From positions 64,001-128,000 of the forward strand of contig CAWCKW010000006.1 in assembly GCA_963796285.1 (NCBI GenBank): a DNA stretch of 64,000 nucleotides. Direction: 5' to 3'. Made by a program: the position numbers and the translations under genes. The DNA is from Nitrospirota bacterium (GTDB lineage: Bacteria; Nitrospirota; UBA9217). Below the pieces are notes generated by a model. That model saw only the letters and a program-made list of their open reading frames with translations. It made no database searches and was not told the origin of the DNA. Positions 15,611 to 38,129 of this stretch are shown here, piece after piece (within the stretch, counting starts at the first letter, position 1; every line of letters begins with the position of its first letter).

Positions 15611-15675
15611 GGTGATCTCCGGTATGCGACATTCAAGTGACATATAATCATTGTCCAATCCAGTTTGCCGTGCTT

Positions 15676-16358: not shown

Positions 16359-17243
16359 TCACGAGAAAAGACCCTGTCCTCGACCAATATCCTGCTGAAT
16401 ATAACCCAGCTTCCTTAAGACCGGCACGAACTTCATGGCCGAGGCAATATAGTCATGGGTAAGTCCGGCGCAGTACTTTGGCGAGACCGCAAGCGTGTCA
16501 AGAACGAACTGCTCATCAACAACGCTGACGAAATCAGCGATCAGGCGCGCCGCTTGCAGCGGTTCCTGCCTGATGAACGCAGTGGCCTCCTCGTGCAGCG
16601 CGAGGAATCGTTCCACGATCTCGCGCTCCCTGCGCAGGAACCCGCGATCAGCCACGATCCCGTAGCTCGGGTTGTTCGGCCACAATCGTGACGGAGGATA
16701 GAGAATCCTGCCGCCTGCGAACCGGTTGATCGCGATAGCCAGGGCCGGCGTTCCCACAGCAGCAGCCACATCGTGGCTGACCATCGCCTCGGTCACCTGG
16801 TCTGACCAGGGATAGTTGAGGACCTTGATCTGTTTGTGCAGGCCATGCTGTTCAAGGCAGTCCCTGAGGATCACGTCATGAATGGACCCTGTTCCGGGCA
16901 CGCCGATGGCGTGCCCCTGGAACTGCCGCAGAATAACACCCAGGTCGCTGATCTCCGGAAAGCCGGCAGCCTGCGGTCCCCCTGCCAGGACCGTCCCTTC
17001 CATGTGGCCGCCCGCAACGCAGACGACATTGATGCCCTTGCTCATGCCGATGATCGCGGGCGGCAGACCGACGTAGGCAAGATCCAGCTCGTTCTGCTGA
17101 AAGGCCTTCATGATCGCCGGGCCCGTGCCCATGAGCTTCCACTCGATCGTCGCGCCAAGCCGCGCGTCCGCGTTGCCCTGTGCCATCAGCAGGATCGCCG
17201 TGTGATAGAACGTAGAAAGATGTCCGATCCTGATCTTCTTCAC
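16359..17243 (-). CDS. SsuA/TauA/NitT-like substrate-binding protein without signal peptide (3' end possibly frameshifted)
   Basis: GTG start MKKIRIGHLSTFYHTA, GPAIMKAF, LDLAYVGLPPAIIG, IGVPGTGSIHDV; no permease or ATPase nearby. Confidence 0.75.
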   Translation of the reverse strand: MKKIRIGHLSTFYHTAILLMAQGNADARLGATIEWKLMGTGPAIMKAFQQNELDLAYVGLPPAIIGMSKGINVVCVAGGHMEGTVLAGGPQAAGFPEISDLGVILRQFQGHAIGVPGTGSIHDVILRDCLEQHGLHKQIKVLNYPWSDQVTEAMVSHDVAAAVGTPALAIAINRFAGGRILYPPSRLWPNNPSYGIVADRGFLRREREIVERFLALHEEATAFIRQEPLQAARLIADFVSVVDEQFVLDTLAVSPKYCAGLTHDYIASAMKFVPVLRKLGYIQQDIGRGQGLFS

Positions 17244-17458
17244 ATGCAATGCTCCGGGAAGAGGATGATCATCGCTGTTGCACATCATAATCCAGATTCC
17301 CGTTGCAGTCAACCCTGTTCAGGAGGCGCGACTGGCTCCGAGTCGCGCCACACATGACGGAGGAGCAGGGGAACGAAAAGCATGGTGCGTCGCAACGGCA
17401 CGGCTGGGAGGCCCTTTCCTGTTGCCGGGCTTCGGACAGTGTGTTACACTATTCCTAT

Positions 17459-19477: not shown

Positions 19478-19481
19478 GCGT

Positions 19482-22326: not shown

Positions 22327-23193
22327 TCAACCCAATTTGCCCTGTATGGCCAGCCGGTCAAGACCCTGCCCGATGACCACCGCCCGGCTGTTCTGCGCGG
22401 CCTTCTCATGGCGTACACTGTTCACCCTGCCGAAGACGAGATCGAACCGATAGGTGCCCTGCTCCGTTGCGACGATGGCCTTTGCCCGCGCCACGGTTCC
22501 GTACTCGCCCCTTGCCAGATCGTCAAAGAACCTCTGAACCAATGCAAGCTCCATCCGCTCCGCGAGTCTGAAGGACTGTGTCTCGAAGTGAAGGTGGCAA
22601 TTGCCAGAATGGATATCGCGATGCAGGGGCGCTTCCGGCAGCGGGATGTCGACCGCGGCGTTCACGGAACGGAGAACGACGGCCAGGGGATTGATGGAGC
22701 TGATCAGCTGTTCTGCGGCAACGATCATGGGCTCGTCTGCGAGGTCGGTCTTATTCACCAGGATGACATCGGAGTTCACGACCTGGTCCTGGAAGAAGCA
22801 TCCGTACATACCGGACTCATAAAGTTCGGTGAACTCAGTCGCGTCGACTATCCCGATGACCGAGGCAGAGCCGGCCCCCGCGCTCTCGAGCGCTTCCAGC
22901 ACTCCGGACGGAGATGCCACGCCGCTCGGCTCGATCAGCAAGTGTTCGGGGGCGAACTGTTTCACAATGCGCTGGATGGTCTGGATGAGCTCGAACTTGA
23001 GCGTGCAGCAGACGCACCCGCTCGGAAGCTCCACTGAATCGATGCCTCCTGCGGACAATATCTCACCGTCGATCCCGACAGCGCCGAAGTCGTTCACCAG
23101 CACAACAGTCCTCTCATTTCCCTGTTTCACAAAGCTTCGAATGAACGTTGTTTTGCCAGATCCCAATAATCCGCATACGATCGTCGTTTTCAT
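22327..23193 (-). CDS. COG0523 (CobW/P47K) G3E metallochaperone GTPase
   Basis: GLLGSGKTT, VNDFG, GCVCC, IEPSG, NKTD, RAKA in the C-terminal domain. Confidence 0.9.
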   Translation of the reverse strand: MKTTIVCGLLGSGKTTFIRSFVKQGNERTVVLVNDFGAVGIDGEILSAGGIDSVELPSGCVCCTLKFELIQTIQRIVKQFAPEHLLIEPSGVASPSGVLEALESAGAGSASVIGIVDATEFTELYESGMYGCFFQDQVVNSDVILVNKTDLADEPMIVAAEQLISSINPLAVVLRSVNAAVDIPLPEAPLHRDIHSGNCHLHFETQSFRLAERMELALVQRFFDDLARGEYGTVARAKAIVATEQGTYRFDLVFGRVNSVRHEKAAQNSRAVVIGQGLDRLAIQGKLG

Positions 23194-23973
23194 GCCGAAA
23201 CCTTCACCATCCTAACAGCTGCTGTTGTTACGCAAAGCCGCACCGTACGCAAAGAGGATCAGCTTGCTGAACGGGCTCGTGAACCTGTGCGCAGCAAGAA
23301 GCGCGGTATCGGGCCATGATAAGCACCCCTCCCCATGATGGGAGGGGACCAAGGGGCAATGCGTCATTCGATGCTTGTGCGCTTCATCCGCGCCTACCTC
23401 CACCATCGCGGGGGAGGGACCTGAGCCCTGACCCTCTAGCAGAGCTATTGTTTCGTGTTTTGGGTTATAGCGTTTTTACTCTGAGAATTCCGTGTTCTGG
23501 CAAAATGTTCATTAGGTTCATCAAAACGACTCACCTCATACCCATTCATTGCAATGGAAGTGCCATAAGAAAAGATGAGCATGTTCGTCAAGGCGCTATG
23601 CATTCAAACAAGCTCCATTACTACACGCCACTAATCAACAAGCATCACAGATATCCGATGTCATACAAAATGAGTATGAGGAATCAAAAACAACGTGAGG
23701 CAAAATTCCCCGGCTCGTGGGGTATTCTTCATCTATTGTACAGATAGTGATAATCTAAAACCATAAATTGAGCCGCGTAATGCCCTGGTATGCGGCCCGC
23801 TCCTGCTCTTCAAAGCGCAAGGATTCGCTGACTCGCAGCATTTAAGAATTAATGAATATCACGGTCTTTCCAATGATCTTCGACTCTTCTTCACGACCTC
23901 TCGCACACTTTTATCCGCCTCGCTTCCCCGGCTTGGCCTGGATCGCAGGCCCGTTAAAAATGTCACCGCCTGA

Positions 23974-23990
23974 TTGGCATCGCATATGCA
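23974..23990 (+). promoter_or_regulatory. Sigma54 (-24/-12) promoter of the methyltransferase cluster
   Basis: TTGGCATCGCATATGCA: GG-N10-GC spacing, 14 nt before the first ATG. Confidence 0.7.
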
Positions 23991-24004
23991 CCATACACCC
24001 TGTC

Positions 24005-24334
24005 ATGAAGAACATCATTCTCTGCTCGTCTAATCCCATTTTGATAAAAAGCCTCTACAGCATGCTGCGGGAGGATGGGTACAATGTGGAGACCATCGAA
24101 CACCCGGCCCATGCGGTCCAGATGGTCATGCGCAGGCACTATCACTTCGTTATCGTTGATTCAGAGCCATTCGGCCTTTCCGCGGGAGACGCGGCGAAGA
24201 TCATCAAGGCCGTCGCGCCCCTGATGCCGGTCCTGTTCGTCGGTGATGACCGCATAGATCCACAGGTGCAGTCCGTAAAGACCCCGATCGACCTCGAAGC
24301 ATTCAAGCGAACGATCCACAGCATCGCGGTTTGA
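24005..24334 (+). CDS. Stand-alone atypical receiver-domain protein
   Basis: CheY-like pattern (IILCSSN, GYNVET, VIVDS, KTPID); acidic pocket DD replaced by SS. Confidence 0.65.
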   Translation: MKNIILCSSNPILIKSLYSMLREDGYNVETIEHPAHAVQMVMRRHYHFVIVDSEPFGLSAGDAAKIIKAVAPLMPVLFVGDDRIDPQVQSVKTPIDLEAFKRTIHSIAV

Positions 24335-24368
24335 CTGTCCGACCCCAAAGGATACGAAAGGAGATGTG

Positions 24369-25397
24369 ATGAAACCAAAGGACGTTATACTCAAGGCATT
24401 CGAGGGAGGCAAGGCCGACCGGCTCCCGGTGACTCTTTTCGGCGCAGGCATGTGGAGCATCAAGCGGCACGGAACGTCGTTCGAGGCCCTGTCGCGGGAC
24501 GCGAACAAGATGACCGACATGCTTGTCGCCATGAGCGAGACGCTTAAGTGCGACATGGTTTACGCGGGCTCGGGCTACAATAACTTCCATGCGTCGGCCC
24601 TGGGCGGGAAGATCAAGTTCCGCGAGATGGGCGCACCGGACCTGGAGAACCACTTTGTCTCATCCGAGGAGGACCTCGCGAAGCTCATGCTCAGCGACCT
24701 CGACAAGGACGAGGTGATCACGACCGTCATTAAATCCCTGCGCCAGACCAAGGCAAAGATCGGCAATAATTACGTCGTCACCATGACGGCCTGGGGCCCC
24801 TTCACCCTCGGCGCGCGGCTTGTGGGCGAGGAAACGATGATGAAGGCCACGTTCAAAAAACCCGCTTTCGTCGAGAAGGTCGTTGATTTCGCCACCGATA
24901 TCCTGATCCATCTCTACGAGCCCATTGTCGCTGACAAGACCCTTGAGGTCATCAGTCTCGCGGACCCCACTGCGTCGGGCGATCTCATTTCCAGGAAACA
25001 GTTCGAGAAGTTCGCATTGCCGTACCTCAAAAAGTTCACTGACTGGGCCAAGTCAAAGAGCGTCCATACGCTGGTCCACATCTGCGGAAACACCACGGAC
25101 CGGCTGGACCTGTTCCCACAGACCGGCGCGAGCTGCATCAGCCTGGACCACAAAACGGACATCACCAAGGCCAAAGAGGCGCTGCACGGTAAAATGTGCT
25201 TCGCCGGGAACGTGGACCCCGTAAAGATCATGCTGAACGGCACGGTCCAGGACGTGGAGAATGCCTGCAAGGACATCATCACGGCCGCCGGTACCGACGG
25301 CGGGTTCGTGCTCATGCCGGGGTGCGACATTCCGCCTACCGTGCCCTACGACAACATCAAAAAGTTCATCCAGGTAGCACATGAGTGGAAAATGTAA
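24369..25397 (+). CDS. MtaA/CmuA-family (UroD-fold) methylcobamide:thiol methyltransferase 1
   Basis: GPFTL, ADPTASGDLIS, Zn ligands HICG and PGCD, GNVDP. Confidence 0.82.
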   Translation: MKPKDVILKAFEGGKADRLPVTLFGAGMWSIKRHGTSFEALSRDANKMTDMLVAMSETLKCDMVYAGSGYNNFHASALGGKIKFREMGAPDLENHFVSSEEDLAKLMLSDLDKDEVITTVIKSLRQTKAKIGNNYVVTMTAWGPFTLGARLVGEETMMKATFKKPAFVEKVVDFATDILIHLYEPIVADKTLEVISLADPTASGDLISRKQFEKFALPYLKKFTDWAKSKSVHTLVHICGNTTDRLDLFPQTGASCISLDHKTDITKAKEALHGKMCFAGNVDPVKIMLNGTVQDVENACKDIITAAGTDGGFVLMPGCDIPPTVPYDNIKKFIQVAHEWKM

Positions 25398-25472
25398 CCG
25401 CACGCGGCTGCCGCTGTCAATATTCCTGAAAAGGAGGTGAACCGGTTCATCGTATGAAAGGAAGTTAACGTC

Positions 25473-25991
25473 ATGGGTATTTTGGACGAGTTGAAGAAAC
25501 TGTTTTCCGGAGCACAACGTGCATCCGGGCAAAAGGAGGAAGCAAAAATGGCTGACAAGAAAATGACGTTGGAAGAATGTAACGATTACATGAAGAAGCA
25601 GTGCGGGTTCGTACCGCGCATGTTCCAGGTCATCAACACGGTGACGCCAGAACCAGGAAGGACCTTCGCTGATTTCTACGCGAGCATTTTCGCCGACGGC
25701 GCGCTTTCCCGCAAGGTGAAGGAGCTCATGTTCATGTCGGGCGGCGTGGCCTACTGCTCCCCGCGGTGCATCATCCACGTGATCCCGGCGATCAATGCCG
25801 GCGCAACCACGATGGAGATCTTCGAAGCAGCATCGGTCGGCATGATCCTCGGCGGCTTTGTGCCGGGCGGTCCCGGCATCCCCTATGCGTTCGAGTATGC
25901 ATTAAAGTGCCTCGACATCGAAGCAAAGTTCCGCAAAGGCGAGAAATGGGAGTATCTCCCGCAGCCAAAGTTCGATCACGGTGTATTCTGA
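25473..25991 (+). CDS. Carboxymuconolactone decarboxylase/AhpD-like protein (alternative start 25548)
   Basis: GFVPRMF, DGALSRKVKEL, YCSPRCIIH, AGATTMEIFEA. Confidence 0.75.
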   Translation: MGILDELKKLFSGAQRASGQKEEAKMADKKMTLEECNDYMKKQCGFVPRMFQVINTVTPEPGRTFADFYASIFADGALSRKVKELMFMSGGVAYCSPRCIIHVIPAINAGATTMEIFEAASVGMILGGFVPGGPGIPYAFEYALKCLDIEAKFRKGEKWEYLPQPKFDHGVF

Positions 25992-26002
25992 CAGAGCTCG
26001 AT

Positions 26003-26034
26003 GGGGGAGCATTTCGAAGGCTCCCCCGCCTTTT
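26003..26034 (+). terminator. Intra-operon hairpin/terminator-like element
   Basis: GGGGGAGC-ATTTCGAAG-GCTCCCCC then GCCTTTT. Confidence 0.5.
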
Positions 26035-26076
26035 GGACTCATACAGTCATTCATAAAACGGATAAGAAACAAAATG

Positions 26077-26158
26077 TTACCGCAGAGAACGCAGCGTTCG
26101 CCGAGAAATCATTGAATAAATAATCAGGCAGGCTCTTCTCCGCGACCGCTGCGGTGAA
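26077..26158. repeat. Degenerate staggered dyad repeat (CGCAGAGAA-type 9-mers)
   Basis: TTACCGCAGAGAACGCAGCGTTCGCCGAGAA ... TTCTCCGCGACCGCTGCGGTGAA. Confidence 0.6.
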
Positions 26159-26205
26159 AAAGAACTCAAGATGCATCATGCTCAATAGCAGGTAAAAGGG
26201 GAACA

Positions 26206-27156
26206 ATGATGTTTCGATTTAACCGTGAACAGAAAGTCTTCAGCCTCGGCGGTATGAAGGTCGGCGGACAGCCCGGGGAAAACCCGCCGCTCCTGATCGC
26301 GTCGATGTTCCACAACAAGGACCGCATCGCCGCGGACCGCAAAGGCAATTTCGACCGGGCCAAGGCGGTGGAGCTGATCAGGACGCAGGAGGCTCTGTCG
26401 GCCTCCACGGGCATCCCGTCCATGGTGGCCATGGTCGCGAACTCTGCTGAAGAGGCAAAGATCTACATCGACTTTTTCCGCGAGACGACGAAGATGTCGT
26501 TCGGCATCGATATGTGGGTCGCTGAAAAACGCGCAGAGGCCACCGAATATGTCGCCAAACTGGGGCTGCAGGACAAGTTCCTGTACAACAGCATCACGCC
26601 CTGGGACAAGGACATCAAGGGTCAGGTCCAAAAGCTCAAGGACCTCGGGATCAAGCATGTCGTTGTCCAGGCCTTTGACGACGCGGACCAGTCCCCGCGC
26701 GGCAGGCTGAACTCCCTGGAAAAGCTGCTCGACCAGGGCGCCGGGGATTTTGAGACAGTTATCGTGGATACCTCGGTCATGAACCTGCCCGCCACGTCGT
26801 TCTCGCTCGTCGCCAACCGGCTGATCAAGGAAAAACTCGGCCTTCCCTGCGGCGGCGCCTATTCGAACGGCACCCATATGTGGAAGGATGCGAAGACCAT
26901 CTGGAGCCTGGACGGGTTCAAGGCCATGGACGCTGTGGTGCAGGGAATGTCCTCGGCGCTCTGGAGTGACTTTAACTTCTATGGTCCCATCGTCACGGCG
27001 CCGCGCATCTTCCCGGCTGTTGCGGCAGCGCAGATCCTGCTCTCGACCCTGGTGTATGATGAAACACAAACGATGTCGGACAACAAGAACATCCCGATCA
27101 AGAAGTACTTCTCGGATTTTCTGGGAAAACTGACTGCAGGGGCAGCAAGGCGCTGA
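26206..27156 (+). CDS. MtrH-like pterin (THF/H4MPT)-dependent corrinoid methyltransferase (MtgA/CmuB type)
   Basis: MFRFNREQKVF...KVGGQPGENPPLLIASMF, LYNSI, GLPCGGAYSN, FYGPI; typical MtrH N-terminus. Confidence 0.85.
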   Translation: MMFRFNREQKVFSLGGMKVGGQPGENPPLLIASMFHNKDRIAADRKGNFDRAKAVELIRTQEALSASTGIPSMVAMVANSAEEAKIYIDFFRETTKMSFGIDMWVAEKRAEATEYVAKLGLQDKFLYNSITPWDKDIKGQVQKLKDLGIKHVVVQAFDDADQSPRGRLNSLEKLLDQGAGDFETVIVDTSVMNLPATSFSLVANRLIKEKLGLPCGGAYSNGTHMWKDAKTIWSLDGFKAMDAVVQGMSSALWSDFNFYGPIVTAPRIFPAVAAAQILLSTLVYDETQTMSDNKNIPIKKYFSDFLGKLTAGAARR

Positions 27157-27235
27157 TGCGCCAATTGGAGAGTAGATTTTCAATTTAAAATTTCCAATCT
27201 CCAATTTTCAATAATTATTTTGCTAAGGAGGATGC

Positions 27236-28267
27236 ATGACCACCATGAATGCAAGGGAACGGATCCTGAAGCTCTTTGCCGGTGAAGAGGTTGACCGGCC
27301 GCCCTGCTTCAGTGGTTTCGGCAACGTGACCACCGAAGGGCTGAAATCGCTGAATCAGAAGTTCGCGTCATCGCATCTCGACGCTAAAATGATGGCCGAT
27401 GCCGCGGCATCGACCAATAAACTGTTCGGGTTCGAATGCGGGGTAGTGCCCTTCGACCTCTGCATCGAGGCTGAGGCCATCGGGTGCGAGATCAATGTCT
27501 ATGCCCACTCCGAAGACCTGCTCTACCCCACGATCAAGAAAAAGCTGATCCACAATGAGGCCGAGCTGGACATCGTCATCCCCACCGGTCTGACCGGTCG
27601 CGGCCGGGTGCCGCTCATGATCGAAGCGATCAAGCTGCTCAAGAAGGACATCGGGGCCGAGGCGGCCATCGGGACCTATGTGCTCGGCCCCTTCACCCTG
27701 GCGGGCCAGATCATGGAGCTGAACGATCTCCTGAAGCTCTCGTTCAAGAAGCCGGACAAGATCGGCAAGCTGCTGGACCAGATGGCGGACACGATCATCG
27801 AGGTGGCCAGGGTGTATGAAAAGGCCGGCGCCGACTACATCACGGTGCGCGAGATGGGCGCTACGTCCGACGTGCTCTCACCGCGGGTGTTCAAGAGCCT
27901 GATCCTGCCGTATTTGAAAAAGATCTTCGCCCAGCTGAGCGTGCCAAGCGTGCTCCATATCTGCGGCAAGACGAACGACATTGTCCCGTTCATGGCCGAG
28001 AGCGGCGCACGGGCGATCAGCGTCGACCAGAAGAACGACGTTGCCGAGACCCGCAAGAAGCTCGGCCCCGCCGCGCTCATCTTCGGCAACTACGATCCCT
28101 ACAACGTGCTGGTGGCGGGCTCAACAGATCTGGTGCGACAGACCATCAAAAAATGCATGGACGACGGCGTGAGCGCGGTCTGGCCGGGTTGCGACATCTG
28201 GCCCACGGTGCCGCCGGACAATGTCAGGGCCATGATGGATGAAGTCAGAACATACAGGAGGTCATAA
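27236..28267 (+). CDS. MtaA/CmuA-family methylcobamide:thiol methyltransferase 2
   Basis: VPFDLCIEAEAIG, GPFTLA, HICG, GNYDP, WPGCDI. Confidence 0.85.
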   Translation: MTTMNARERILKLFAGEEVDRPPCFSGFGNVTTEGLKSLNQKFASSHLDAKMMADAAASTNKLFGFECGVVPFDLCIEAEAIGCEINVYAHSEDLLYPTIKKKLIHNEAELDIVIPTGLTGRGRVPLMIEAIKLLKKDIGAEAAIGTYVLGPFTLAGQIMELNDLLKLSFKKPDKIGKLLDQMADTIIEVARVYEKAGADYITVREMGATSDVLSPRVFKSLILPYLKKIFAQLSVPSVLHICGKTNDIVPFMAESGARAISVDQKNDVAETRKKLGPAALIFGNYDPYNVLVAGSTDLVRQTIKKCMDDGVSAVWPGCDIWPTVPPDNVRAMMDEVRTYRRS

Positions 28268-28268
28268 C

Positions 28269-28957
<689 letters not shown>

Positions 28958-28961
<4 letters not shown>

Positions 28962-29644
28962 AGACCTCGCTCAGGAGAGAGTTGCTGGACCATGGCGCCA
29001 CGGTCGTGGGAATCGCAGACCTTCGCGGGTACCTGAGCGGGGAGATCGCCCATCTGGACCGCGCAGTGTCGATCGGCGTGGACCGGAGGCTGAATGAAGA
29101 CACGCTCAGCCTGCTCGTGAAGCTCCAGAAGCGGGCAGTGCGGTTCCTGAAAACCCGGGGACACCGGACACTGGCCATCCCGCCGGACTCGGACCGGAAA
29201 AATGGCACGTTCATCTCAACGCTGTATTCCCTGTTCAACCACAAGATGGCGGCCACGTCTGCGGGTCTGGGGTGGATCGGCAAGAATGGACTTCTCATCA
29301 ACCCCGACTACGGGCCGCGTTTGTCTCTTGCCACGGTTCTGACGGACGCCCGGCTCAGCCCGGACGTGCCCATCGAGCGTTGCCTCTGTGGAGAGTGCCT
29401 TCTCTGCATAGAGCACTGCCCCTCAAAGGCTATAACCGGATCGGAGTGGTCACGGTCGTCGCCCTTCGTTGAACTGGTGAAGCTCAATGCCTGCAGGAGT
29501 CATAAGGCGGCGAAGAGGGCAATGGACAACAAACCAAATTGCGGATTGTGCATCAACATCTGCCCGTATGGGAGGAAAAGCGAAAGAGCATTGGAAGCAA
29601 GTAACCACGGAGTCACGGAGACACGGAGAGAAACACTGAAATGA
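28958..29644 (+). CDS. QueG/reductive-dehalogenase-like 2x[4Fe-4S] protein
   Basis: HKMAATSAGLGWIGKNGLL, YGPR...TVLTD, CGECLLCIEHCP, CGLCINICP; ATGA overlap with the corrinoid gene. Confidence 0.75.
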
Positions 29645-29746
29645 ATAGAGCCAAGGCTGATGATTTGCGATCTACGTTTGGTCGATCCTGTTCCTTGCCC
29701 TGCTTTCAATATCTCGGACTTCTCCGTGCCTCCGTGTCTCCGTGGT
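29604..29746. repeat. Staggered dyad repeat (CACGGAGN 8-mers, 26-bp arms, 2 mismatches)
   Basis: ACCACGGAGTCACGGAGACACGGAGA ... TCTCCGTGCCTCCGTGTCTCCGTGGT; left arm lies inside the 3' end of the upstream CDS. Confidence 0.8.
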
Positions 29747-29786
29747 GGATATAGATCCGAGACTTGAATATGTCGGGAGGAAGTGC

Positions 29787-31763
29787 ATGGTCAAGAAACA
29801 CAAAGTTATATTTCAGCCCTCGGGCAGCCGGGGTGAGGTAGAGGACGGCAAGACCATCCTCGAGGCAGCCCAGTCCCTGGGTGTTGATATTGAGGCGCTC
29901 TGCGGCAACAAGAAGGTCTGCGGCAAGTGCAAGGTGAGGATCGAAGAAGGGTATTTCGAAAAGGACAACATCGAATCGGGCATGGCCCACCTCTCGCCGC
30001 TCACCGAGGCGGAGAAGAAGCACATCAAGCCCGAGGACGGGCCCGGCATCAGGCTGTCCTGCACGGCTGAGATCCACGGCGACATAAAGGTCTTCGTTCC
30101 CGAACGATCGCGCGCGGGCAAACAGGTCGTGCGCAAGGCGGCCAAGGAGCTTACGATCAAGCTCGACCCGGCAGTCAAGAAGTACAACATCGAACTCACA
30201 AAGCCCACCCTGCATGACATGACCACCGGTGACTGGGAGCGCGTGCTCAAATTCCTCGACGACGACTATGGACTAAAGGGTCTCACGTTTGATTACCTCG
30301 TCCTGAAGGACCTTCAGGATACGCTGCGCAAGGGCGAATGGAAAGCCACGGTCACCGTCTGGATGGACAAGGAGATCATCAAGGTCGAGCCCGGGTTCGT
30401 TGAAGCAAGCTACGGTCTGGCCGTGGACATCGGCACCACGACCTGCGTGGGGTACCTCACGGACCTGAGCACGGGCAAGGTCGTGAACACCGAATCCATG
30501 ATGAACCCCCAGGTGCCCTACGGCGAGGACGTGATGTCGCGCATCACCTATGCCATGAGCAATCCCGGCGGCCTCGAGACCATGCAAAAGGCGGTCATCA
30601 TTGGTCTGAACGAGATCATCGAACGGGTGGTATCGGACATCGCGAAGGACGCGCCCCATCCCGGCTTTGTGATCGATGACCTCACCATCGTGTTCAACAC
30701 GGCCATGCACCACATCTTCCTGGGCATGAACCCGGAATACATCGGCAAATCGCCCTTCATCCCGGCGGTCCAGAGCTCGCTCGACATCAAGGCGCGCGAC
30801 CTGGGCCTGAAGATCAACCCGTCAGCCTACATTCACGTGCTGCCGATCGAGGCCGGCTTCGTGGGCGCAGACAACGTGGGCGTCCTGATCGCCGAGGAAC
30901 CCTACAACCAGGACGAAATGGTGCTGATCATCGATATCGGCACGAACGGCGAGCTGCTCCTGGGCAACCGGAACAAGGTCTGCTCCACGTCATGCGCCAC
31001 GGGCCCGGCCTTCGAGGGCGCCCAGATCAAGTTCGGCATGCGTGCTGCTCCTGGCGCGATCGAGACGGTCGAGATCGATCCCGCGACCAAAGAGCCGCGC
31101 TACAAGGTCATCGGCAAGGCCGACTGGCATACCCACATCGCGGAAGTGAAGGCCAAGGGTCTGTGCGGTTCCGGCATCATCGGCGTCGTGGCGGAAATGT
31201 TCAAAGCCGGCATCATCGATAAGAGCGGCAGGTTCGTGATGGACCTCGGCACGACGCGGGTCAGGAAGGACATCGACGGCAAGCCCGAGTACGTGCTCGC
31301 CTGGGCCGCGGAGACCTCCATCGGCCATGACATCACCATCACCCAGGGAGATGTTCGCGCGCTCCAGCTCGCCAAAGGGGCGCTCTACGCCGGCGCAAAA
31401 CTGATGATGAAGCGTCTCAACGTGACCAAGCTCGACCGCGTGATCCTGGCCGGCGCGTTCGGGAGCCACATCGACAAGGTGGCATCGCTCACCCTCGGCA
31501 TGTTCCCGGACTGCCCCATCGACATGGTCTACGCAGTGGGCAACGCGGCCGGCGACGGTTCGCGCATGGCGCTCCTGAACCGGGACAAGCGGCGCGAGGC
31601 GAACGAGCGGGCGCGGTGGGTCGAGTTCGTCGAGATCGCCACGGACCCGGCCTTTGAGAAGGAATTCATGCAGGCGATGCATATCCCGCATATGAAGGAC
31701 AAGTTCCCGAACCTGAAGGAGCTGCTCGCGAAAACGAACAGCCCGGTGGAGATCAAAGGATAA
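29787..31763 (+). CDS. ATP-dependent reductive activator of corrinoid proteins (RACo/ASKHA, N-terminal [2Fe-2S])
   Basis: CGNKKVCGKC...RLSC, AVDIGTTT, YGEDVMSRI, GFVGAD, DIGTNGE, GPAFEG, GLCGSG, LAGAFG, GNAAG. Confidence 0.92.
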   Translation: MVKKHKVIFQPSGSRGEVEDGKTILEAAQSLGVDIEALCGNKKVCGKCKVRIEEGYFEKDNIESGMAHLSPLTEAEKKHIKPEDGPGIRLSCTAEIHGDIKVFVPERSRAGKQVVRKAAKELTIKLDPAVKKYNIELTKPTLHDMTTGDWERVLKFLDDDYGLKGLTFDYLVLKDLQDTLRKGEWKATVTVWMDKEIIKVEPGFVEASYGLAVDIGTTTCVGYLTDLSTGKVVNTESMMNPQVPYGEDVMSRITYAMSNPGGLETMQKAVIIGLNEIIERVVSDIAKDAPHPGFVIDDLTIVFNTAMHHIFLGMNPEYIGKSPFIPAVQSSLDIKARDLGLKINPSAYIHVLPIEAGFVGADNVGVLIAEEPYNQDEMVLIIDIGTNGELLLGNRNKVCSTSCATGPAFEGAQIKFGMRAAPGAIETVEIDPATKEPRYKVIGKADWHTHIAEVKAKGLCGSGIIGVVAEMFKAGIIDKSGRFVMDLGTTRVRKDIDGKPEYVLAWAAETSIGHDITITQGDVRALQLAKGALYAGAKLMMKRLNVTKLDRVILAGAFGSHIDKVASLTLGMFPDCPIDMVYAVGNAAGDGSRMALLNRDKRREANERARWVEFVEIATDPAFEKEFMQAMHIPHMKDKFPNLKELLAKTNSPVEIKG

Positions 31764-31927
31764 ACCTGGCCCAGTCAAGTCGGAATTTAACAAATCGTCT
31801 CTGTATGCCTCCGCGGGAGATTTTCACCCGTTGTGAAAAGAATTTGATTTGCAACTGACTAAAAACGGAAGTTTCCCGTTCAAAGAATATCAGCTGCTGA
31901 ATGAAAGGCGGCCGACCGGAAGAGCCT

Positions 31928-32242
31928 ATGACCACGGTTATCGTCAATGCGGGTGCGTGCGGATATACCGTCACCATCACAGCAAAAAAAAACAAAGACA
32001 ACACGATCGTTGTAGCCCTGGATACGGAGTGTGCCATGGTGAAGAAGATGCTCGAGGACATCGCGGTCCTTGACCGGTTCGCCCCGCTCACCGGGTTCCA
32101 GAACAATCCCGTGTACCTCTCCGCGGCAAAGCGCCTCAAGCATGTGGCCTGTCCTGTGCCATCAGGCATTTTGAAGACGCTCGAGGTCGAAGCGGGCTTG
32201 AATGTTGTGAAGGATGCAACCATCACGTTCGATAAGAAATAG
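31928..32242 (+). CDS. Conserved small Cys-containing protein (DUF6951-like)
   Basis: VNAGACG, TEC, HVACPVPSGILK...EAGL. Confidence 0.65.
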   Translation: MTTVIVNAGACGYTVTITAKKNKDNTIVVALDTECAMVKKMLEDIAVLDRFAPLTGFQNNPVYLSAAKRLKHVACPVPSGILKTLEVEAGLNVVKDATITFDKK

Positions 32243-32361
32243 ACCTTCTCCAGCTAGTGAAGTTGGGTATTGACCAAAAACCCTTTTATGGTCTGAACAG
32301 TACGTCAACGGATCGGTTATTTGCCCGATATGGTACAATAGGACAAGAACAAAGGGCGACC

Positions 32362-33042
32362 ATGGAAAAACTTCTCATCGTTGCCGTGTATGCAGTGTAC
32401 GCGGCATTCTGGCTGCGGTTCTTGGGGCATGCCCTCGTGTGGTGGAAAGCCACGCAGCGGTTCATGGAACCCATTGCTCCCCGGACACGGGCGAAGGCCT
32501 GTGCGCTCACGGCCACTGATGTGGTGTTCTTCAACAGGCTCTTCTGGGTGAACCCAGGGCTTTGGTTCGGTGAATGGCTCTTTCACGCCACCTTGACGCT
32601 TGTGTTCCTGCGCCACCTCAGGTTTGTCCTGGACCCGGTGCCGGCCTGTATCTGGTGGGTACAGACGCCAGGGCTGATCGCGGGCTATCTTCTGCCCGTG
32701 TCACTCGGATACATCCTGATCATCCGGCTGCTCACCAACCAGGAGAAGTATGCTGCTCCTGGGAACGTTTTTCTCCTCGGTCTGGTGCTCGTCATCAGCT
32801 GCGTCGGTCTTCTCATGCAGGCGCTGTTCAAACCCGACCTCGTCGGCGTGAAGCTGTTCATTCTCAGCTTTACCGGCTTTACTCCGGCGGCCGTACCTCA
32901 TAGCCTTTTGTTCGTACTGCATTTCAGCCTCGTTCTGGTCCTGGTCCCCTTCCTGCCCACGCACATCTTCACGGCCCCGCTGGTGATGATGGAGGCCAGG
33001 AAGCGGGAGCAAGCGCTTCGCCTGGTGATCCATGAAGAATGA
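32362..33042 (+). CDS. NarI/DsrM/HdrE-like membrane cytochrome b subunit
   Basis: About five TM helices; His pairs in WLFHATLTLVFLRH and VLHFSL...LPTHIF. Confidence 0.75.
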   Translation: MEKLLIVAVYAVYAAFWLRFLGHALVWWKATQRFMEPIAPRTRAKACALTATDVVFFNRLFWVNPGLWFGEWLFHATLTLVFLRHLRFVLDPVPACIWWVQTPGLIAGYLLPVSLGYILIIRLLTNQEKYAAPGNVFLLGLVLVISCVGLLMQALFKPDLVGVKLFILSFTGFTPAAVPHSLLFVLHFSLVLVLVPFLPTHIFTAPLVMMEARKREQALRLVIHEE

Positions 33043-34235
33043 CCGGTCCTTCACTGAAGAGCTTTCATCCAGACAGGTCCTCGAGATCGACGCCTGCACG
33101 CAGTGCGGCGAGTGCCTGAAACACTGCCCGGTGCAGGACGTGACGGGCAACCCCGCGGTCTCGCCGCCCGAAAAGATCCGCATGTTCCGCGAGTTCATCC
33201 GCGCAACCGACGGGCTCAAGGCAAAGCTCTTCGGCCCGGGCGAGGTGGACCGGAAACTGCTCGAGGATTTCACGAAGGCCGTGTATGAATGCACCACCTG
33301 CGGCGCGTGCGGTCAGAACTGCCCGGTCGGCATCTTTACGCAGCGGCTCTGGCCCATGCTCAGAAAAGAGATGGTGAAACGCGGCCTCGGGCCGATCGGC
33401 GTCCAGGCTGACCTGCCGAACGCGATCCGAACATTCCGGCAATCCCTATGACAAACCTGCGGCAAACCGGTATGCGCCCTGGTTCCCGGAGCAGGTGAAG
33501 CTCGTGGAGCGTTCAGCGATCGCCTACTACGCCGGGTGCACGGGCGCCTACGAATCACAGCCCATGGTCAGGGGAGACGTGCTCGTACTGAACGCGATCG
33601 GAGAGCCCTTTACCATGCTGCCGCCGGAAGAAGAGGTGTGCTGCGGATTTCCACTCTTCATCACAGGACAGCACGATCTGCTCAAGGAGCTCGTCACGAG
33701 GCTCGTGGAGGGATATACGGCGCGCGGCGTCAAGATGCTGGTCTGCTCCTGTCCCTGCTGCGTGAACATCATGGCCCGGGACTGGCCCCTGATCTACGGC
33801 GCGGCGCTGCCGTTCAAGATACGGCATATCACGCAGTATGTTTCGGAGGCGATCCAGCAGGGCAGACTGCGCGTGAACAAGGAACTGCATGAGTCCGTGA
33901 TCTACCACGATCCCTGTTACCTCAGCAGGGGTGTGGGCGTGATCGAGGAGCCGCGCAGCGTGCTCAAAAGCATCCCCGGAGTCACGCTCCTGGAGTTCGA
34001 GCGGCATGGCCTGAACTCGCGATGCTGCGGTTCCGGCGGCGCGGCCCGCAAGGTCTTTCACGAGAACGCCATCAAGATGGGCAGACAGACCATTGACGAG
34101 GCCGTGGCAAAAAAGGCCGACCGCCTGATCTTGAGCTGCCCCGCCTGTTATGCCAAGGTGAACGAGGCCATGCAGGGTTATGATAAGCAGATCCGCATCA
34201 CGGACATCATGGAGCTGATGAGCGGGTTGATTTGA
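33032..34235 (+). CDS. HdrD-like Fe-S oxidoreductase (2x[4Fe-4S] + 2 CCG domains), frameshift near 33434
   Basis: CTQCGECLKHCP, CTTCGACGQNCP, SGNPY after repair, YYAGC-CCGFP-CPCC, YHDPC-CCGSGG-CPAC. Confidence 0.85.
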
Positions 34236-34246
34236 TAATGAATGCG

Positions 34247-34324
34247 TCTCGCGCAAAGCCGCAAAGGGCGCAACGAAAATAAAGACGTGAATTATTAGTT
34301 CTTTCTCTGTGTCTTTGCGCGAAA
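34247..34324. repeat. Staggered dyad repeat, same family as 3315-3447
   Basis: TCTCGCGCAAAGCCGCAAAGGGCGCAACG ... CTTTCTCTGTGTCTTTGCGCGAAA. Confidence 0.7.
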
Positions 34325-34344
34325 ATTGAATTAAGGACTTAATC

Positions 34345-35605
34345 ATGAGCCATTTTTCCATTCAATGCAAAAAGTGCGGTAAGAACCTCGAGAACACCTT
34401 CTGCGCCTTCTGCGAACACTGCAAGGACGCGCTCCTCGTGACGAATTATCACGGCACCCGTTTTGCGGAACAGGGGACTGAGGGAATCTGGAGGTTCAAT
34501 TGGCTTCCCGTCCATGGTTCGCGATTCTCCCAGCCGGGTCCGCTGGTGTATCGTTCGCAGCGTCTTGCCGAGCATCTTGGCCTGGAGAATCTTTACATTG
34601 CTTTCAACGGGTACTGGCCCGAGAAAGGGGTGTTCCTTGAGACGTGCACGTTCAAGGAGTTCGAGGCCGCCGTGGTGCTTCAGAACGCCCGGGAGAACGG
34701 CATTGAAGGCCTGATCGTCGCATCCGCCGGGAACACGGCGCGGGCCTTCTCGCACCTTTCTTCGGTGACGGGATTTCCCGTCGTCATTGTCGTACCGCGG
34801 ATGTGCCTCACGGAGATGTGGTACCTCGAACAATCGTCCACAGTGCCTACTCTCGCGGTGGGGGACGGCGATTACGCGGACTCTATCGATGTCGCGAAGA
34901 AGATCGCGCTCATCACGGGGTTCCCGTTCGAAGGCGGGGTGAAGAACATTGCCAAGCGAGACGGCCTCGGCATCGTGATGCTCGAAGCGGTTTCGAAGAT
35001 AGGAAAACTGCCGGACCACTACGTTCAGGCCGTGGGAAGCGGCACCGGCGCTATCGGCGCGTGGGAGATGGCCGAGAGGTTCATTAAGGACGGCAGGTTC
35101 GGCTCTCGCTTGCCGATCCTCCATCTCGGACAGAACCTCCCTTTTGCGCCGATGCTTCATGCATGGGACAAGGGCAGCCGCGCGCTGTTCCCCGAAGACC
35201 TGAATCCGGAGCTGATCGCGCAAATCACTACCCGCGTGCTCTCGACCCGCTATCCCGCATATTCGGTTCAAGGGGGATGTGTTCGATGCGCTCGCGGCAA
35301 CCAGCGGAAAGATGTACGGCATTGAGAATGACGCCGTGTATGCCGGGATGGAACTATTTCTGAAGACCGAAGGCATCGACATCGTTCCCGCCTCGGGCGT
35401 GGCCGTTGCCGTGCTCGGCGACGCCGTGCGGAAAGGCGCGATCAAAAAGAACGAGACAGTCCTTTTGAACATCACAGGCGGAGGAGAAGCGCGGCTGAGA
35501 CAGGTTAAGAAGACCTATGCCGTGGAGCCGAAGTTTATCTCTAAAAACGCGACAGACAAGGACATCGAGGAGCTTTTGTGCCACACCCTGAAGAAGATCT
35601 CATAG
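34345..35605 (+). CDS. Cysteate synthase (PLP, threonine-synthase-like), frameshift in a G-run near 35275
   Basis: N-terminal CxxC pairs, FNGYWPE, TCTFKEFEA, ASAGNTARAF, EGGVKNIAKRDG, QAVGSGTG, QNLPFAPM, FDAL, LLNITGGG. Confidence 0.85.
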
Positions 35606-36715
35606 CCATACTCAAGAAGCACTCGGTGGATTTCACCGCTTCCCTTCCCTGCGAGAAGATCAAGACCCTTCTCGAGATGATTGGCCAGCAGTTCACGCAC
35701 CTGCCATTGACCCGCGAAGAGGAAGGGGTGGGCATCTGCGCCGGTGCAGCGCTCTCGGGAAGACGACCGGCCATGTTCGTTCAAAGCTCGGGCATCGGGA
35801 ACATGCTCAACGCGCTCCTGTCCCTCACGCAGTTCTATGAGCTCCCGCTCGCGATCTTCGTGAGCCAGCGGGGCGATCTACAAAGAGAAGATCGAAGCCC
35901 AGTTCCCCATGGGCCAACGGCTCCCCGGCATACTCTCCGGCGCAGGCATCGCCTATACCGAGATAAAAAGCAGCCAGGATATCAGCAAAGTGGACCAGGA
36001 GCTTGCGGAAGTGTTCGGCAAGAATAGAATTCACGCGTTCCTGATGAGCCCTGCGATATGGGAAGGGTCGGAATGCGGAGTTCGGAGCGCAGCATGCGGA
36101 ACAAGGACATCAACTGCAAAGGAACCTGCGTCAAGGCCCATGCCTGGTGTATCAAGGCCGACGTTGACACGATTCGACATCATCAAGATCCTCGCGCCAT
36201 ACCTTGAGGGCAAGGCAGTCGTGAGCAATCTCGGATGGCCTTCCAAGGAACTGTTTGCCATCAAGCATCAACCATCGAACTTCTACATGCTCGGCAGCAT
36301 GGGCATGGCAACGCCCATCGGCCTGGGCATGGCGCTCACCTCATCGAAAGAGATCATCGTCATCGACGGCGACGGAAGCCTGCTCATGAACCCCGGCACG
36401 CTCGCAACAGCAGCTTACGCTGCTCCGCGCAATCTGACCATCATCGCGATCGACAACGGCGCCTACGGCTCCACGGGAAACCAGCCGACGCTTGCGGCAT
36501 CATGCGTTGATCTCGAAGCCGTCGCGCAAGGGTTCGGGTTCAGGAACACGGTGAAGGTTGCGACCGAAGAGCAGATTGTGGAAGTGATGAAGAAACAGCG
36601 GAAGGGGCCGCGTTTTATTCATGTCCTGGCGATTCCGGGGAACAAGGACATCCCGAATATTCCGATCCCTCATATGGAGATCAAACAACGGGTGCAGGAG
36701 TTTCTAAGAACGTGA
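35578..36715 (+). CDS. comDE: Fused sulfopyruvate decarboxylase ComD-ComE, frameshift near 35876
   Basis: SLPCEKI, LTREEEGVGICAGA, QSSGIGN, repaired SQRGIYKEKIEAQFPMG, SNLGWPSKEL, NFYMLGSMG, IDGDGSLLMN, DNGAYGSTGNQ. Confidence 0.87.
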
Positions 36716-37230
36716 TCTGCTTACCATTAATACAACGGGGCATTCATCACCGGAAAGAGGATGAGGATACAACTCGAAATATTACTCGCCCTTTTAACTG
36801 GTTTTTGCTTTGTTCACGTACAAGGTTGCACTGCAGGCCTGTCGAAAATGCTGCGAACTTCTTGTTGAAAGGTACATCGAATGCGCAGGTCAAACCATGA
36901 TTTTACTCAGCATGCATCTCACAGGTGAGAGGAAGGTCTTACCTTGGGTTTTGAGTTATCTTGAGGCCGATCCCGATCTCTTTGCCACAGCAGACACTTT
37001 AGGCTACCTTCTCTGATTCTCTTGAAGGCTTGCACACCGTATCTTGCCTAAGGCCGATGAAAACGTGTTACCTCTGCCTCAAAACCCAAGGTAATTCTAT
37101 AAATCTGCAGATGTTTTGTTATAAAGTTCTCAATTATAGCATTGAGGATATTAAATGAAATCATTAATCGCATCAACATCGCTTATTTAAACTGCAAGGT
37201 TGCCTGTCATTTGCAGCCAATTTTTGTTCC

Positions 37231-37547
37231 TTATACCTTCTCTGCAGCAGCCTGCTTATTACGCATAGTAGATGGAACGGAGACTGCAACTCCCGCCACC
37301 GTGCCCGAAGCCCGCCGACCACGAGGCAGACCGCTGCTGCGCAGGCGATCCCGACCACGATCCCCATCACGATTATTGCCCGCGCTATGAGGGTCGGCTC
37401 AACTGTCCCGCCCATCAGTTTCTGGAGCAGGATCAGCGTCCCGAAGCTGCCGAAGTAGAACCCCGGCATGATCCCGAATACCAGAAACACCACCCCCCCT
37501 ATTGATGCTCCGATCTTCATTCCTGTTTTGACTGTCTCGTTCTTCAT
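37231..37547 (-). CDS. Small Gly-rich membrane protein (paralogue 2), indel near 37308
   Basis: GASIGGVVFLVFGIMPGFYFG; repaired C-terminus GTVAGVAVSVPSTMRNKQAAAEKV*; AAGGAG RBS. Confidence 0.65.
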
Positions 37548-37607
37548 GGCGAATCTCCTTTCAGCCGCAGCTGTTATATTTTGTTGAATAGTATCTTGCC
37601 CCTCTGT

Positions 37608-37928
37608 TTATCTCTGGCCTGCTTTTGCTTCTTCCGGCTCTTTGGCATGCGTGCCCGATTCAAGGGCCTTGCCGACAAGCCAGCCGACCGTTGATGTGGC
37701 CGTTACCATCACGATGCCGGCTACCAGAACTCCGAGGAGCATGGATGCGAGTACGATGACCCTCGATACCAGTCCCGGCTGGAGGGGAAGCCCAAAGAAC
37801 CATCCCGCGATATTGATGCCCATCGCGCCGCCCAGCAGGCTGCCCGGCAGAAGCCCAAAGAGCGCGAAGAGCACCAGTCCTGCGCCTGCCCCGATGTATG
37901 CTGTCTTTCTTGCTATTGTGGTCTTCAT
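37608..37928 (-). CDS. Small Gly-rich membrane protein (paralogue 1)
   Basis: GAGAGLVLFALFGLLPGSLLGG, aligns with its neighbour; AAGGAGG RBS. Confidence 0.75.
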   Translation of the reverse strand: MKTTIARKTAYIGAGAGLVLFALFGLLPGSLLGGAMGINIAGWFFGLPLQPGLVSRVIVLASMLLGVLVAGIVMVTATSTVGWLVGKALESGTHAKEPEEAKAGQR

Positions 37929-37966
37929 TGTCGTTTCCTCCTTTTCGTTCGTCTTGTCTGGGTAAT

Positions 37967-37983
37967 TGCATCATACGTGCCAA
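37967..37983 (-). promoter_or_regulatory. Sigma54 promoter
   Basis: Minus-strand TTGGCACGTATGATGCA, GG-N10-GC, near consensus. Confidence 0.75.
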
Positions 37984-38129
37984 AAGGTAAGGTCCTGAAT
38001 TTGCTGGAAGGAGGTACTGATAACGTTTTGCAGAAGTGAGAAAAGAAGGTTTATTTTAATAGAGATGCAAAAAGCTGTTCCAAGCAGCGCTGGCTACAGA
38101 TTACTCAAGCCGTTATTGCTAAACGTATC

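Follow-up and report, generated by a model that had tools for sequence, protein, structure and literature searches.

A cysteate synthase and a fused sulfopyruvate decarboxylase form the 3' end of a conserved corrinoid methyltransferase operon in Nitrospirota

We analysed a window of 64,000 nt from contig CAWCKW010000006.1 (assembly GCA_963796285.1); all coordinates without another prefix refer to this window. At 34345-36715 on the + strand are four open reading frames (ORFs), which are the two halves each of a cysteate synthase (CysS) and of a fused sulfopyruvate decarboxylase (ComD-ComE, or ComDE), the front end of a methanogen pathway to coenzyme M (CoM). We found that these two genes close, at its 3' end, a conserved operon of corrinoid methyltransferase and Hdr-like genes, a point that the initial annotation of this DNA had missed. 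We are highly confident that the two proteins are what their families suggest, a cysteate synthase and a fused ComDE, and that their role is biosynthetic. As a model for the operon as a whole, we propose that they supply sulfoacetaldehyde, from which the cell would build a CoM-like thiol as the substrate of the zinc thiol-methyltransferases encoded upstream, and we give this model about an even chance of being right.

34345-35605, + strand: CysS (cysteate synthase), split into 34345-35325 (326 amino acids) and 35279-35605 (108 amino acids)
35578-36715, + strand: fused ComD-ComE sulfopyruvate decarboxylase, split into 35578-36027 (149 amino acids) and 35909-36715 (268 amino acids)

The first half of CysS scores 368.3 bits against the cysteate synthase model TIGR03844 (cut-off 324.9; profile positions 1-312), and the second half continues the profile (85.9 bits, positions 311-395). 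In a relative with an intact gene, the protein reaches 474.4 bits, far above its scores against threonine synthase models (89.3 bits or less). The pyridoxal phosphate (PLP) domain PF00291 is likewise found on both halves (66.6 and 38.9 bits), and a T-F-K-E stretch that is invariant in six relatives, and whose lysine we take to be PLP-binding, is found in the window ORF. The model for the sulfo-lyase CuyA gives only 26.7 bits, on the C-terminal fragment. For ComDE, the second half is over the cut-off of the beta-subunit model TIGR03846 (231.3 bits; cut-off 221.5), and the alpha-subunit model TIGR03845 gives 132.9 bits on a truncated fragment (cut-off 147.95). The intact ComDE of a relative is over both cut-offs (181.1 bits for alpha and 226.2 bits for beta, the latter by a small margin) but below that of the phosphonopyruvate decarboxylase model TIGR03297 (209.2 bits; cut-off 312.5). 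No phosphoenolpyruvate (PEP) mutase was found in the host genome. ComDE has two thiamine pyrophosphate (TPP) domains (PF02776 with 31.3 bits, N-terminal, and PF02775 with 67.7 bits, C-terminal), and a GDG...N stretch, visible in the ORF, is presumably the TPP-enzyme motif.

These results bear out the family assignments of the initial annotation, which had named a cysteate synthase and a sulfopyruvate decarboxylase. The ComD-ComE fusion that it described is seen as one ORF in relatives. The 28-bp overlap between the two genes that it reported is real as well: ComD starts with GTG at 35578 and CysS ends at 35605. This overlap (35578-35605) recurs at the same length in the relatives L010, L012, and L015, and it is 25 bp in L009.

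Ten genes upstream lie on the same strand as the pair, with small gaps or overlaps:

24366..25397, + strand: MT_a, a UroD-superfamily, MtaA/CmuA-like methyltransferase (PF01208, 213.6 bits; TIGR01463, 191 bits, below the cut-off of 235.4)
25473..25991, + strand: AhpD/carboxymuconolactone-decarboxylase-family protein with a C-x3-C pair (PF02627, 26.5 bits)
26206..27156, + strand: MtrH-family methyl-corrinoid:pterin (tetrahydrofolate-type) methyltransferase (PF02007, 174.2 bits; NF002142, 320.2 bits, cut-off 287)
27236..28267, + strand: MT_b, an MtaA/CmuA-family methyltransferase, by profile scores nearest to methanogen methylcobamide:CoM methyltransferase
28239..28961, + strand: corrinoid (B12-binding) methyl-carrier protein (TIGR02370, 217 bits, cut-off 215.3; PF02310 and PF02607)
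28958..29644, + strand: 2x[4Fe-4S] protein, QueG/RDH-like ferredoxin part (PF13484, 34.5 bits; TIGR00276 and TIGR02486 partial)
29742..31763, + strand: RACo/RamA-type ATP-dependent reductive activase of corrinoid proteins (PF14574, 314.6 bits; PF17651, 177.7; PF17650, 88.5; PF00111, 37.9)
31901..32242, + strand: DUF6951 small cysteine-containing protein (PF22263, 97.8 bits)
32257..33042, + strand: membrane cytochrome b of the DsrM/HdrE/NarI type (DsrM model, 50.1 bits; the L062 orthologue matches PF02665, Nitrate_red_gam)
33032..34235, + strand: HdrD/DsrK/TfrB-like Fe-S protein with two CCG domains, split into 33032-33451 and 33495-34235

The conserved order of 12 genes therefore runs from the S-type methyltransferase MT_a (first) and the AhpD-like protein (second) through the MtrH-like protein, the MtaA-like MT_b, the corrinoid protein, the Fe-S protein, RACo, DUF6951, cytochrome b, and the HdrD-like protein to CysS and ComDE. 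MT_b is over the cut-offs of two subfamily models, NF004889 (methylcobalamin:CoM methyltransferase; 268.2 versus 244) and TIGR01463 (252.1 versus 235.4). The MtrH-like protein also matches the model for MtgA, a methylcorrinoid:tetrahydrofolate enzyme (146.7 bits), and the activase scores 480.6 bits against the AcsV model. The genes for cytochrome b and the HdrD-like protein overlap (32257-33042 and 33032-34235). Taken together, the operon is predicted to encode a machine for corrinoid methyl transfer, made up of two Zn(His-Cys-Cys) thiol-type methyltransferases, an MtrH-type outlet, a methyl carrier, RACo with its Fe-S donor, and parts for thiol/disulfide redox chemistry. In one related locus, L053, the 2x[4Fe-4S] protein and RACo are fused as a single ORF of 968 amino acids (L053:3430-6333); because of this fusion, we consider the Fe-S protein to be probably the electron donor of the activase.

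Gene order was counted by tblastn of the operon proteins against the best 80 of 147 related stretches, which came from scanning prokaryote genomes, one for each species, with an alignment of six intact CysS proteins as the query. ComDE follows CysS in all 74 loci with room for it, and the gene immediately before CysS is HdrD in 72 of 75. In 50 of the 51 species-level loci that have at least 9.5 kb of upstream flank, this flank contains MtrH, MT_b, the corrinoid protein, and RACo. A DUF6951 homologue is present in 66 of the 80 loci, and 30 loci have all 12 genes in the same order. Across 41 relatives, MT_b orthologues and CysS co-occur; the only mismatches (G002, G003, and G009) arise where a contig begins or breaks off within the operon.

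There are exceptions to this order. L036 and L054 lack cytochrome b and HdrD. The same two genes are missing from two genus mates of the host, G001 (locus L015) and G007 (L013), which keep CysS-ComDE and the methyltransferases, so the cells can do without the Hdr-like module, at least at this locus. L062 has cytochrome b-HdrD-CysS-ComDE as an isolated module, preceded by unrelated genes. In L081, whose 10-kb flank has none of the methyltransferase genes, a MerR-resolvase gene (L081:7164-7784) separates CysS-ComDE from a distant CCG protein, and a mobile element seems to have rearranged the locus. Identity of G001 to the window is 93-97% for the upstream genes but only 71-76% for CysS and ComDE. 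We read the 3' end of the operon as a mosaic that lineages have exchanged.

The host genome, which is estimated to be 96% complete, contains dsrAB and a gene for acetyl-CoA synthase (CdhC/AcsB); it is predicted to belong to an uncultured Nitrospirota sulfate or sulfite reducer with the Wood-Ljungdahl acetyl-CoA synthase. Nearly all of the best 80 stretches (66-100% identity) come from metagenome-assembled genomes (MAGs) titled Nitrospirota, Nitrospirae, Thermodesulfovibrionia, Candidatus Sulfobium, or Dissulfurispiraceae. Just two are titled otherwise, one as a Betaproteobacteria MAG and one as the unclassified "Bacterium BMS3Bbin05." In L030 and in the proteins P0247 and P0252, near-identical operon genes carry the labels Betaproteobacteria and Candidatus Sulfotelmatobacter, and these are probably mis-binned Nitrospirota contigs. 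Among 57 genomes of the host's class (at least 80% complete), CysS was found in 33 (E of 1e-60 or below), representing 9 of 18 genera, and it is over the family cut-off in 31. The gene set is thus common but accessory in the class. Metagenome runs that contain parts of the stretch are from peat, wetland, sediment, and soil.

In this assembly, CysS has an interrupted reading frame, as do HdrD and ComDE. Each interruption is a single-base excess, and the three of them fall within 3.7 kb (HdrD at ~33429-33431, CysS at 35272-35279, and ComD at ~35876). In relatives, each gene is one ORF (399-406 amino acids for the HdrD-like protein, 418-441 for CysS, and 378-410 for ComDE). In the family search, CysS is over the cut-off and in one open frame, of 419-474 amino acids, in 9 of 40 relatives; in a tenth, G004, it is split. 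When ~20 kb around ten relative CysS genes was compared with the window proteins, the CysS and ComDE halves were contiguous in a single frame in the compared relatives. We also aligned Logan contigs from four peat or wetland runs (at least 92% likeness) over 33000-36800. The indels listed over this interval are one letter absent at each of the three break sites and none elsewhere: at 33429-33431 (HdrD) in all four runs; at 35272/35277/35279 (CysS) in two contigs of run X1 and one of run X3; and at 35876 (ComD) in runs X1, X2, and X3. Because the relatives are intact and every covering contig of the other metagenomes lacks one base, the breaks are probably consensus (assembly) errors and not gene decay.

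Alternatively, the frameshifts might be real, and the 3' part of the operon (HdrD, CysS, and ComDE) would be decaying to pseudogenes in this population. We consider this unlikely, although several observations weigh against an artefact. Three breaks lie in 3.7 kb, yet the eight upstream genes align unbroken to relatives; rpoB and rpoC of the same genome are intact, so assembly errors are not everywhere; and the loss of cytochrome b and HdrD from G001 and G007 makes the end of the operon evolutionarily labile. The aligned contigs are ~95-99% identical, so they represent related strains and not demonstrably the source sample. However, each broken gene has exactly one excess base, with no stop codon or other lesion, and both halves keep 74-89% amino acid identity to intact orthologues, and the excess base is absent from all covering contigs of three to four other runs. 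Furthermore, outside the window, dsrA is broken too, with two pieces that overlap but lie in separate frames (G000:C13:69693-70310 and 69167-69739), and dsrB carries an in-frame TGA (dsrAB region G000:C13:68190-70310); dissimilatory sulfite reducers are not known to manage without these genes. G004, another genome in few contigs, has many such breaks across this operon.

The base in excess at the break sites (33429-33431, 35277, and 35876) can in each case be taken for an A after G, in or beside GAT(C/G), and it does not lie in a long homopolymer. Such errors might arise systematically if bases at a methylated motif are miscalled.

A search of CysS against 1.84 billion representatives gave 198 proteins with E of 1e-30 or below. 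The best match is 61% identical and the next is 48% identical. Named members of the nearest clusters are from Methanomassiliicoccus, Phycisphaerae, Acetothermia, and Gammaproteobacteria (among 30 representatives looked up, 4 have a cluster member named after an organism, and none of the four is in the immediate sister clade). Atlas clusters of CysS homologues are archaeal and Bacteroidota. In a quick maximum-likelihood tree with 89 rows, 13 Nitrospirota CysS and one further representative form one deep clade (SH-aLRT, the Shimodaira-Hasegawa-like approximate likelihood ratio test, of 99), within which the Nitrospirota proteins diverge down to 66% identity; to all other proteins their identity is no more than 48%. 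A ThrC-like gene of the host (G000:C13:415923-417044) scores 60 bits on TIGR03844. Its branch in the tree is 3.03 changes per column long and falls outside the other 88 rows, all of which are cysteate-synthase-like. Grouping with threonine synthases would have spoken against the assignment, and the tree places ThrC as a distant outgroup.

The initial annotation had considered horizontal acquisition from archaea. The CysS tree does not indicate a recent transfer, given a single deep Nitrospirota clade whose named relatives are both archaeal and bacterial, and an old single acquisition or ancient presence would fit. It is highly improbable that a methanogen CoM cassette was acquired recently and has no integrated function. 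It is true that the nearest named CysS from outside the Nitrospirota is that of Methanomassiliicoccus (48% identity) and that the MtaA-, MtrH-, and HdrD-like genes all have methanogen counterparts. Against this, besides the depth of the clade and the bacterial relatives, the gene order is kept across at least 50 species-level genomes, CysS occurs in half of the genera of the class, and the GC content of the region (0.57-0.60) is near that of the neighboring DNA.

Both methyltransferases have the residues expected of enzymes that act on thiols. Against MtaA of Methanosarcina mazei (4ay7), MT_b aligns end to end (162.5 bits), with the HICG (His-x-Cys) and PGC motifs aligned, and MT_a scores 92.7 bits and conserves both motifs. 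According to a section of PMC10418091, His-Cys-Cys zinc ligands are diagnostic of S/Se-methyltransferases in the UroD superfamily, and O-demethylases replace the cysteines. A homologue search with MT_b gave only close relatives (81-95% identity), annotated at the source as mtaA or as MtaA/CmuA family. The redox pair is built like HdrDE or DsrMK: one protein has CCG domains and a 4Fe-4S dicluster domain, and the other is a membrane cytochrome b. In an intact relative, the HdrD-like protein matches the CCG domain with 81.2 bits. Its scores, and those of the cytochrome b, are below the equivalog cut-offs (TfrB, 181.9 versus 385; DsrK, 95.8 versus 400; DsrM, 50.1 versus 300).

Most of the steps from the pair's substrates toward a thiol can be assigned. 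The initial annotation had listed two steps as missing, the aminotransferase and the final insertion of sulfur, and neither an aminotransferase nor a COG1900 gene lies in the annotated part of the window (~11989-42431). The aminotransferase step is no real gap, because the host genome has seven class I/II aminotransferases; methanogens also use a general aspartate aminotransferase for the sulfopyruvate step. The gap in sulfur insertion does stand. Genome-wide, there is no match to PF01837 (COG1900/HcyBio, the family that includes ComF/MMP16 and L-ASST), and the MMP16 model TIGR03287 is matched only in its ferredoxin part (29.5 bits or less), so the search for ComF candidates that the initial annotation had suggested yielded none of these. 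COG1900 is also missing from all 25 genomes of the host's family that were searched, and it is present in two genomes of another family. No ComA-family gene was found in the host genome. As no known enzyme from sulfoacetaldehyde to CoM is present, we infer the thiol product.

According to their families, CysS would convert phosphoserine and sulfite to cysteate, a housekeeping aminotransferase would turn cysteate into sulfopyruvate, and ComDE would decarboxylate this to sulfoacetaldehyde. We propose that sulfoacetaldehyde is then thiolated, giving CoM or a closely similar sulfonated thiol, and that the enzyme responsible is not related to the archaeal COG1900 ComF; in this sulfide-producing cell, the adjacent cytochrome b/HdrD pair might supply the reducing step. 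The CoM-like thiol would be the methyl acceptor or donor for the MtaA-like MT_b. In this way a soluble system could connect methyl-sulfur compounds, the thiol, and methyl-tetrahydrofolate, with methyl groups entering the Wood-Ljungdahl pathway via MtrH, and a membrane HdrDE/DsrMK-like module linked to menaquinol may keep the thiol reduced.

That CoM itself is the end product we rate as somewhat less than an even bet. A more specific version is that sulfate-reducing Nitrospirota make CoM by a third route, with the methanogen front end and a COG1900-free reductive thiolation, possibly by cytochrome b/HdrD in a cytoplasm rich in sulfide. They would use it as methyl carrier in a soluble, Mtr-like MtaA/MtrH system through which methyl-sulfur compounds, such as methanethiol or dimethylsulfide, feed tetrahydrofolate and so the Wood-Ljungdahl pathway. 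Such a CoM-dependent metabolism of methyl transfer would have no precedent among anaerobic bacteria. We put this version forward tentatively, as rather doubtful.

Several results count against a CoM-like thiol. Besides the absence of COG1900 and the loss of cytochrome b and HdrD in the genus mates, the host genome has no match to Mcr alpha (PF02249), and methyl-CoM would have no known fate there. Also, MT_b is below the equivalog cut-offs of MtaA (244.8 versus 400) and MtbA (185.9 versus 600). In our own counting on the alignment, T28, Q29, R70, and Q94 of MtaA correspond to F, G, V, and Y in MT_b, and L75 is kept; these four are among the active-site residues of MtaA listed in an excerpt of PMC13618148. 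The substrate of MT_b need not be CoM.

Instead, the pathway might stop or branch at sulfoacetaldehyde and lead to a sulfonate that is not a thiol: taurine by transamination, isethionate by reduction, or sulfoacetate by oxidation. Cysteate synthase homologues do serve ends other than CoM in other bacteria, as in the Bacteroidota clusters, where the end is the synthesis of capnine and sulfonolipids. The product would help in osmotic balance, take up sulfite, or be built into other compounds, and its linkage to the methyltransferases would reflect shared regulation or another sulfonate substrate. We regard both parts of this explanation as improbable. The lack of ComF in the host and in its family agrees with it, as do the class I/II aminotransferases and the MT_b pocket, which is unlike that of MtaA at the residues in PMC13618148, and a passage of PMC12019592 considers whether bacterial cysS might provide taurine anaerobically. 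But methyltransferases with a His-Cys-Cys zinc site, of which the operon has two, require a soft (S/Se) ligand, by the account in part of PMC10418091, and a sulfonate, alcohol, or amine offers none. The long-lived linkage in the operon, including the adjacency of HdrD and CysS in nearly all loci, points to thiol/disulfide chemistry, and the operon has no dedicated gene for a sulfoacetaldehyde reductase or a taurine aminotransferase.

Another alternative is catabolism, in which ComDE would funnel imported cysteate, sulfolactate, or sulfopyruvate to sulfoacetaldehyde and so free sulfite as an electron acceptor, in the manner of bacteria that respire sulfonates. ComDE homologues are used for sulfonate catabolism in Roseobacters, the host has dsrAB, and an SsuA/NMT1-family gene travels with the operon (see below). 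Even so, we think that this is very unlikely. The best score for Xsc in the host genome is 347.6 bits, well below the cut-off of 676.4, and the genome lacks a glycyl-radical enzyme that could cleave isethionate. The partner of ComDE is a cysteate synthase (474 bits in an intact relative) and not a sulfo-lyase, and the NMT1-like protein of L062 lacks an evident signal peptide. As no known consumer of sulfoacetaldehyde or isethionate and no desulfonation route was found, we hold to a biosynthetic role for the pair.

The genes that flank the operon are less conserved. Among the related loci, no conserved same-strand gene lies 3' of ComDE, where a ComF candidate might have been expected; a convergent ORF of ~199 amino acids follows ComDE in 35 of 58 loci. 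Convergent NMT1-like homologues lie just downstream of ComDE in 15 of the 80 loci (L062:11444-12394 and 14 others). In the window, the corresponding gene is 7 kb upstream of the operon, beside a histidine kinase and a response regulator:

16359..17312, - strand: NMT1/SsuA-family (sulfonate-binding-protein-like) gene (TIGR01728, 83.7 bits; PF13379, 72.2 bits)
17303-19477, + strand: PAS-GAF histidine kinase (HATPase_c, HisKA, GAF, and PAS domains)
19482-20816, + strand: sigma-54-dependent response regulator (Sigma54_activat, 230.2 bits; Response_reg; HTH_8)

At its start, the NMT1-like protein of L062 looks cytoplasmic, and the NMT1-like protein may be a sulfonate-sensing regulator of the operon. 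The kinase and response regulator are a possible regulator pair for the operon, a link that we infer only. Matches to the sigma-54 consensus numbered 26 (31.8 expected), and none before MT_a was convincing. A scan of 23000-38000 for promoters and terminators was at chance level (6 versus 5.7 and 18 versus 14.8) and so was uninformative on the ends of the operon. A perfect sigma-54 consensus at 23550-23565 (- strand) faces a gene for a CobW/COG0523 metallochaperone GTPase (22327-23193, - strand), which is divergent from the operon. CobW homologues are found in three related loci, and in L036 and L054 they are upstream of the operon; the CobW-like protein could deliver cobalt or zinc to the methyltransferase system. 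Near the NMT1-like gene, at 14654-15679 (- strand), is a protein of 341 amino acids with a TPP_enzyme_C domain. We dropped the antisense ORFs at 26182-27204, 33555-34361, 34339-35475, 17444-19720, and 19692-20459, as recognized sense genes lie on the other strand.

To our knowledge, CoM is known only from methanogens, alkane-oxidizing archaea, and aerobic alkene-oxidizing bacteria, which make it by a different route. Here, a conserved operon ties a methanogen-type CoM front end to MtaA-, MtrH-, and HdrDE-like genes in about half of the genomes of a bacterial class. If the model holds, CoM-type chemistry would reach the anaerobic sulfate reducers. It would also give a concrete gene set for the degradation of methylated sulfur compounds by sulfate reducers and a solution outside of COG1900 for the last, debated step of CoM synthesis. 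Matches to mtaA, hdrD, cysS, and comDE in metagenomes would then be unsafe as markers for methanogens. Our search of the open literature, which did not extend to subscription journals and supplements, found no description of this operon, and the operon does not appear in the sections of papers on Lake Towuti (PMC12740246), an acidic pit lake (PMC9326234), and the deep subsurface (PMC12019592) that bear on it.

The closest known system is the phosphoserine-dependent CoM pathway of Methanosarcinales and Methanomicrobiales. It too has adjacent, overlapping genes for CysS and a fused ComDE that belong to the same equivalog models, and its aminotransferase is also unclustered; for Methanoculleus, an adjacent cysteate synthase and fused ComDE are described in part of PMC4045070. 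The difference is that here there is no COG1900/MMP16 and no Mcr, the organism is a bacterium with dsrAB, and the pair lies inside a methyltransferase/Hdr operon. According to portions of PMC11844431 and PMC4045070, the COG1900/HcyBio family holds both MMP16/ComF and the L-ASST backup, and the former source has MMP16 as the primary ComF and describes backup routes that need sulfide.

The other bacterial source of CoM to compare would be the route of Xanthobacter autotrophicus (XcbB1C1D1E1), which reportedly starts from PEP with a ComA homologue. In contrast, ComA is absent here, the precursors would be phosphoserine and sulfite, and the setting would be anaerobic methyl transfer and not alkene or epoxide metabolism.

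The MtaA/MtbA/MtsA systems of methylotrophic methanogens resemble this operon in that MT_b passes the MtaA/CmuA subfamily models and has the zinc ligands, and in that a corrinoid protein and an activase adjoin. Unlike those systems, MT_b misses the equivalog cut-offs and has a different pocket, there is no methyltransferase of the MtaB or MttB type, an MtrH-type protein is present, and the activase is of the bacterial RACo type. In architecture, the front of this operon is similar to the type 1 mlp clusters, in which Mlp2 and Mlp3 go with a corrinoid protein and a RACE activase; Kountz and Balskus (PMC10418091) proposed, in a section of that paper, that these clusters function in methyl-sulfur or methyl-selenium metabolism. 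As described there, these clusters lack a tetrahydrofolate methyltransferase, whereas this operon has MtrH, the HdrDE-like pair, CysS, and ComDE. The main text does not mention Nitrospirae, MtrH, sulfopyruvate, or CoM biosynthesis, and the supplement (367 organisms) could hold Nitrospirota clusters.

Finally, the redox pair reaches no equivalog cut-off (TfrB, DsrK, or DsrM), but like HdrDE of Methanosarcina and DsrMK of sulfate reducers, which are membrane-bound disulfide reductases fed by quinol or methanophenazine, it combines, in overlapping genes, a cytochrome b with an Fe-S protein that has two CCG domains and a 4Fe-4S dicluster domain. Overall, CysS and ComDE are themselves further members of known families. 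It is the operon that is new, in that it joins a methanogen CoM front end to SCMT-, MtrH-, and HdrDE-like genes, without ComF or Mcr, in an anaerobic bacterium.

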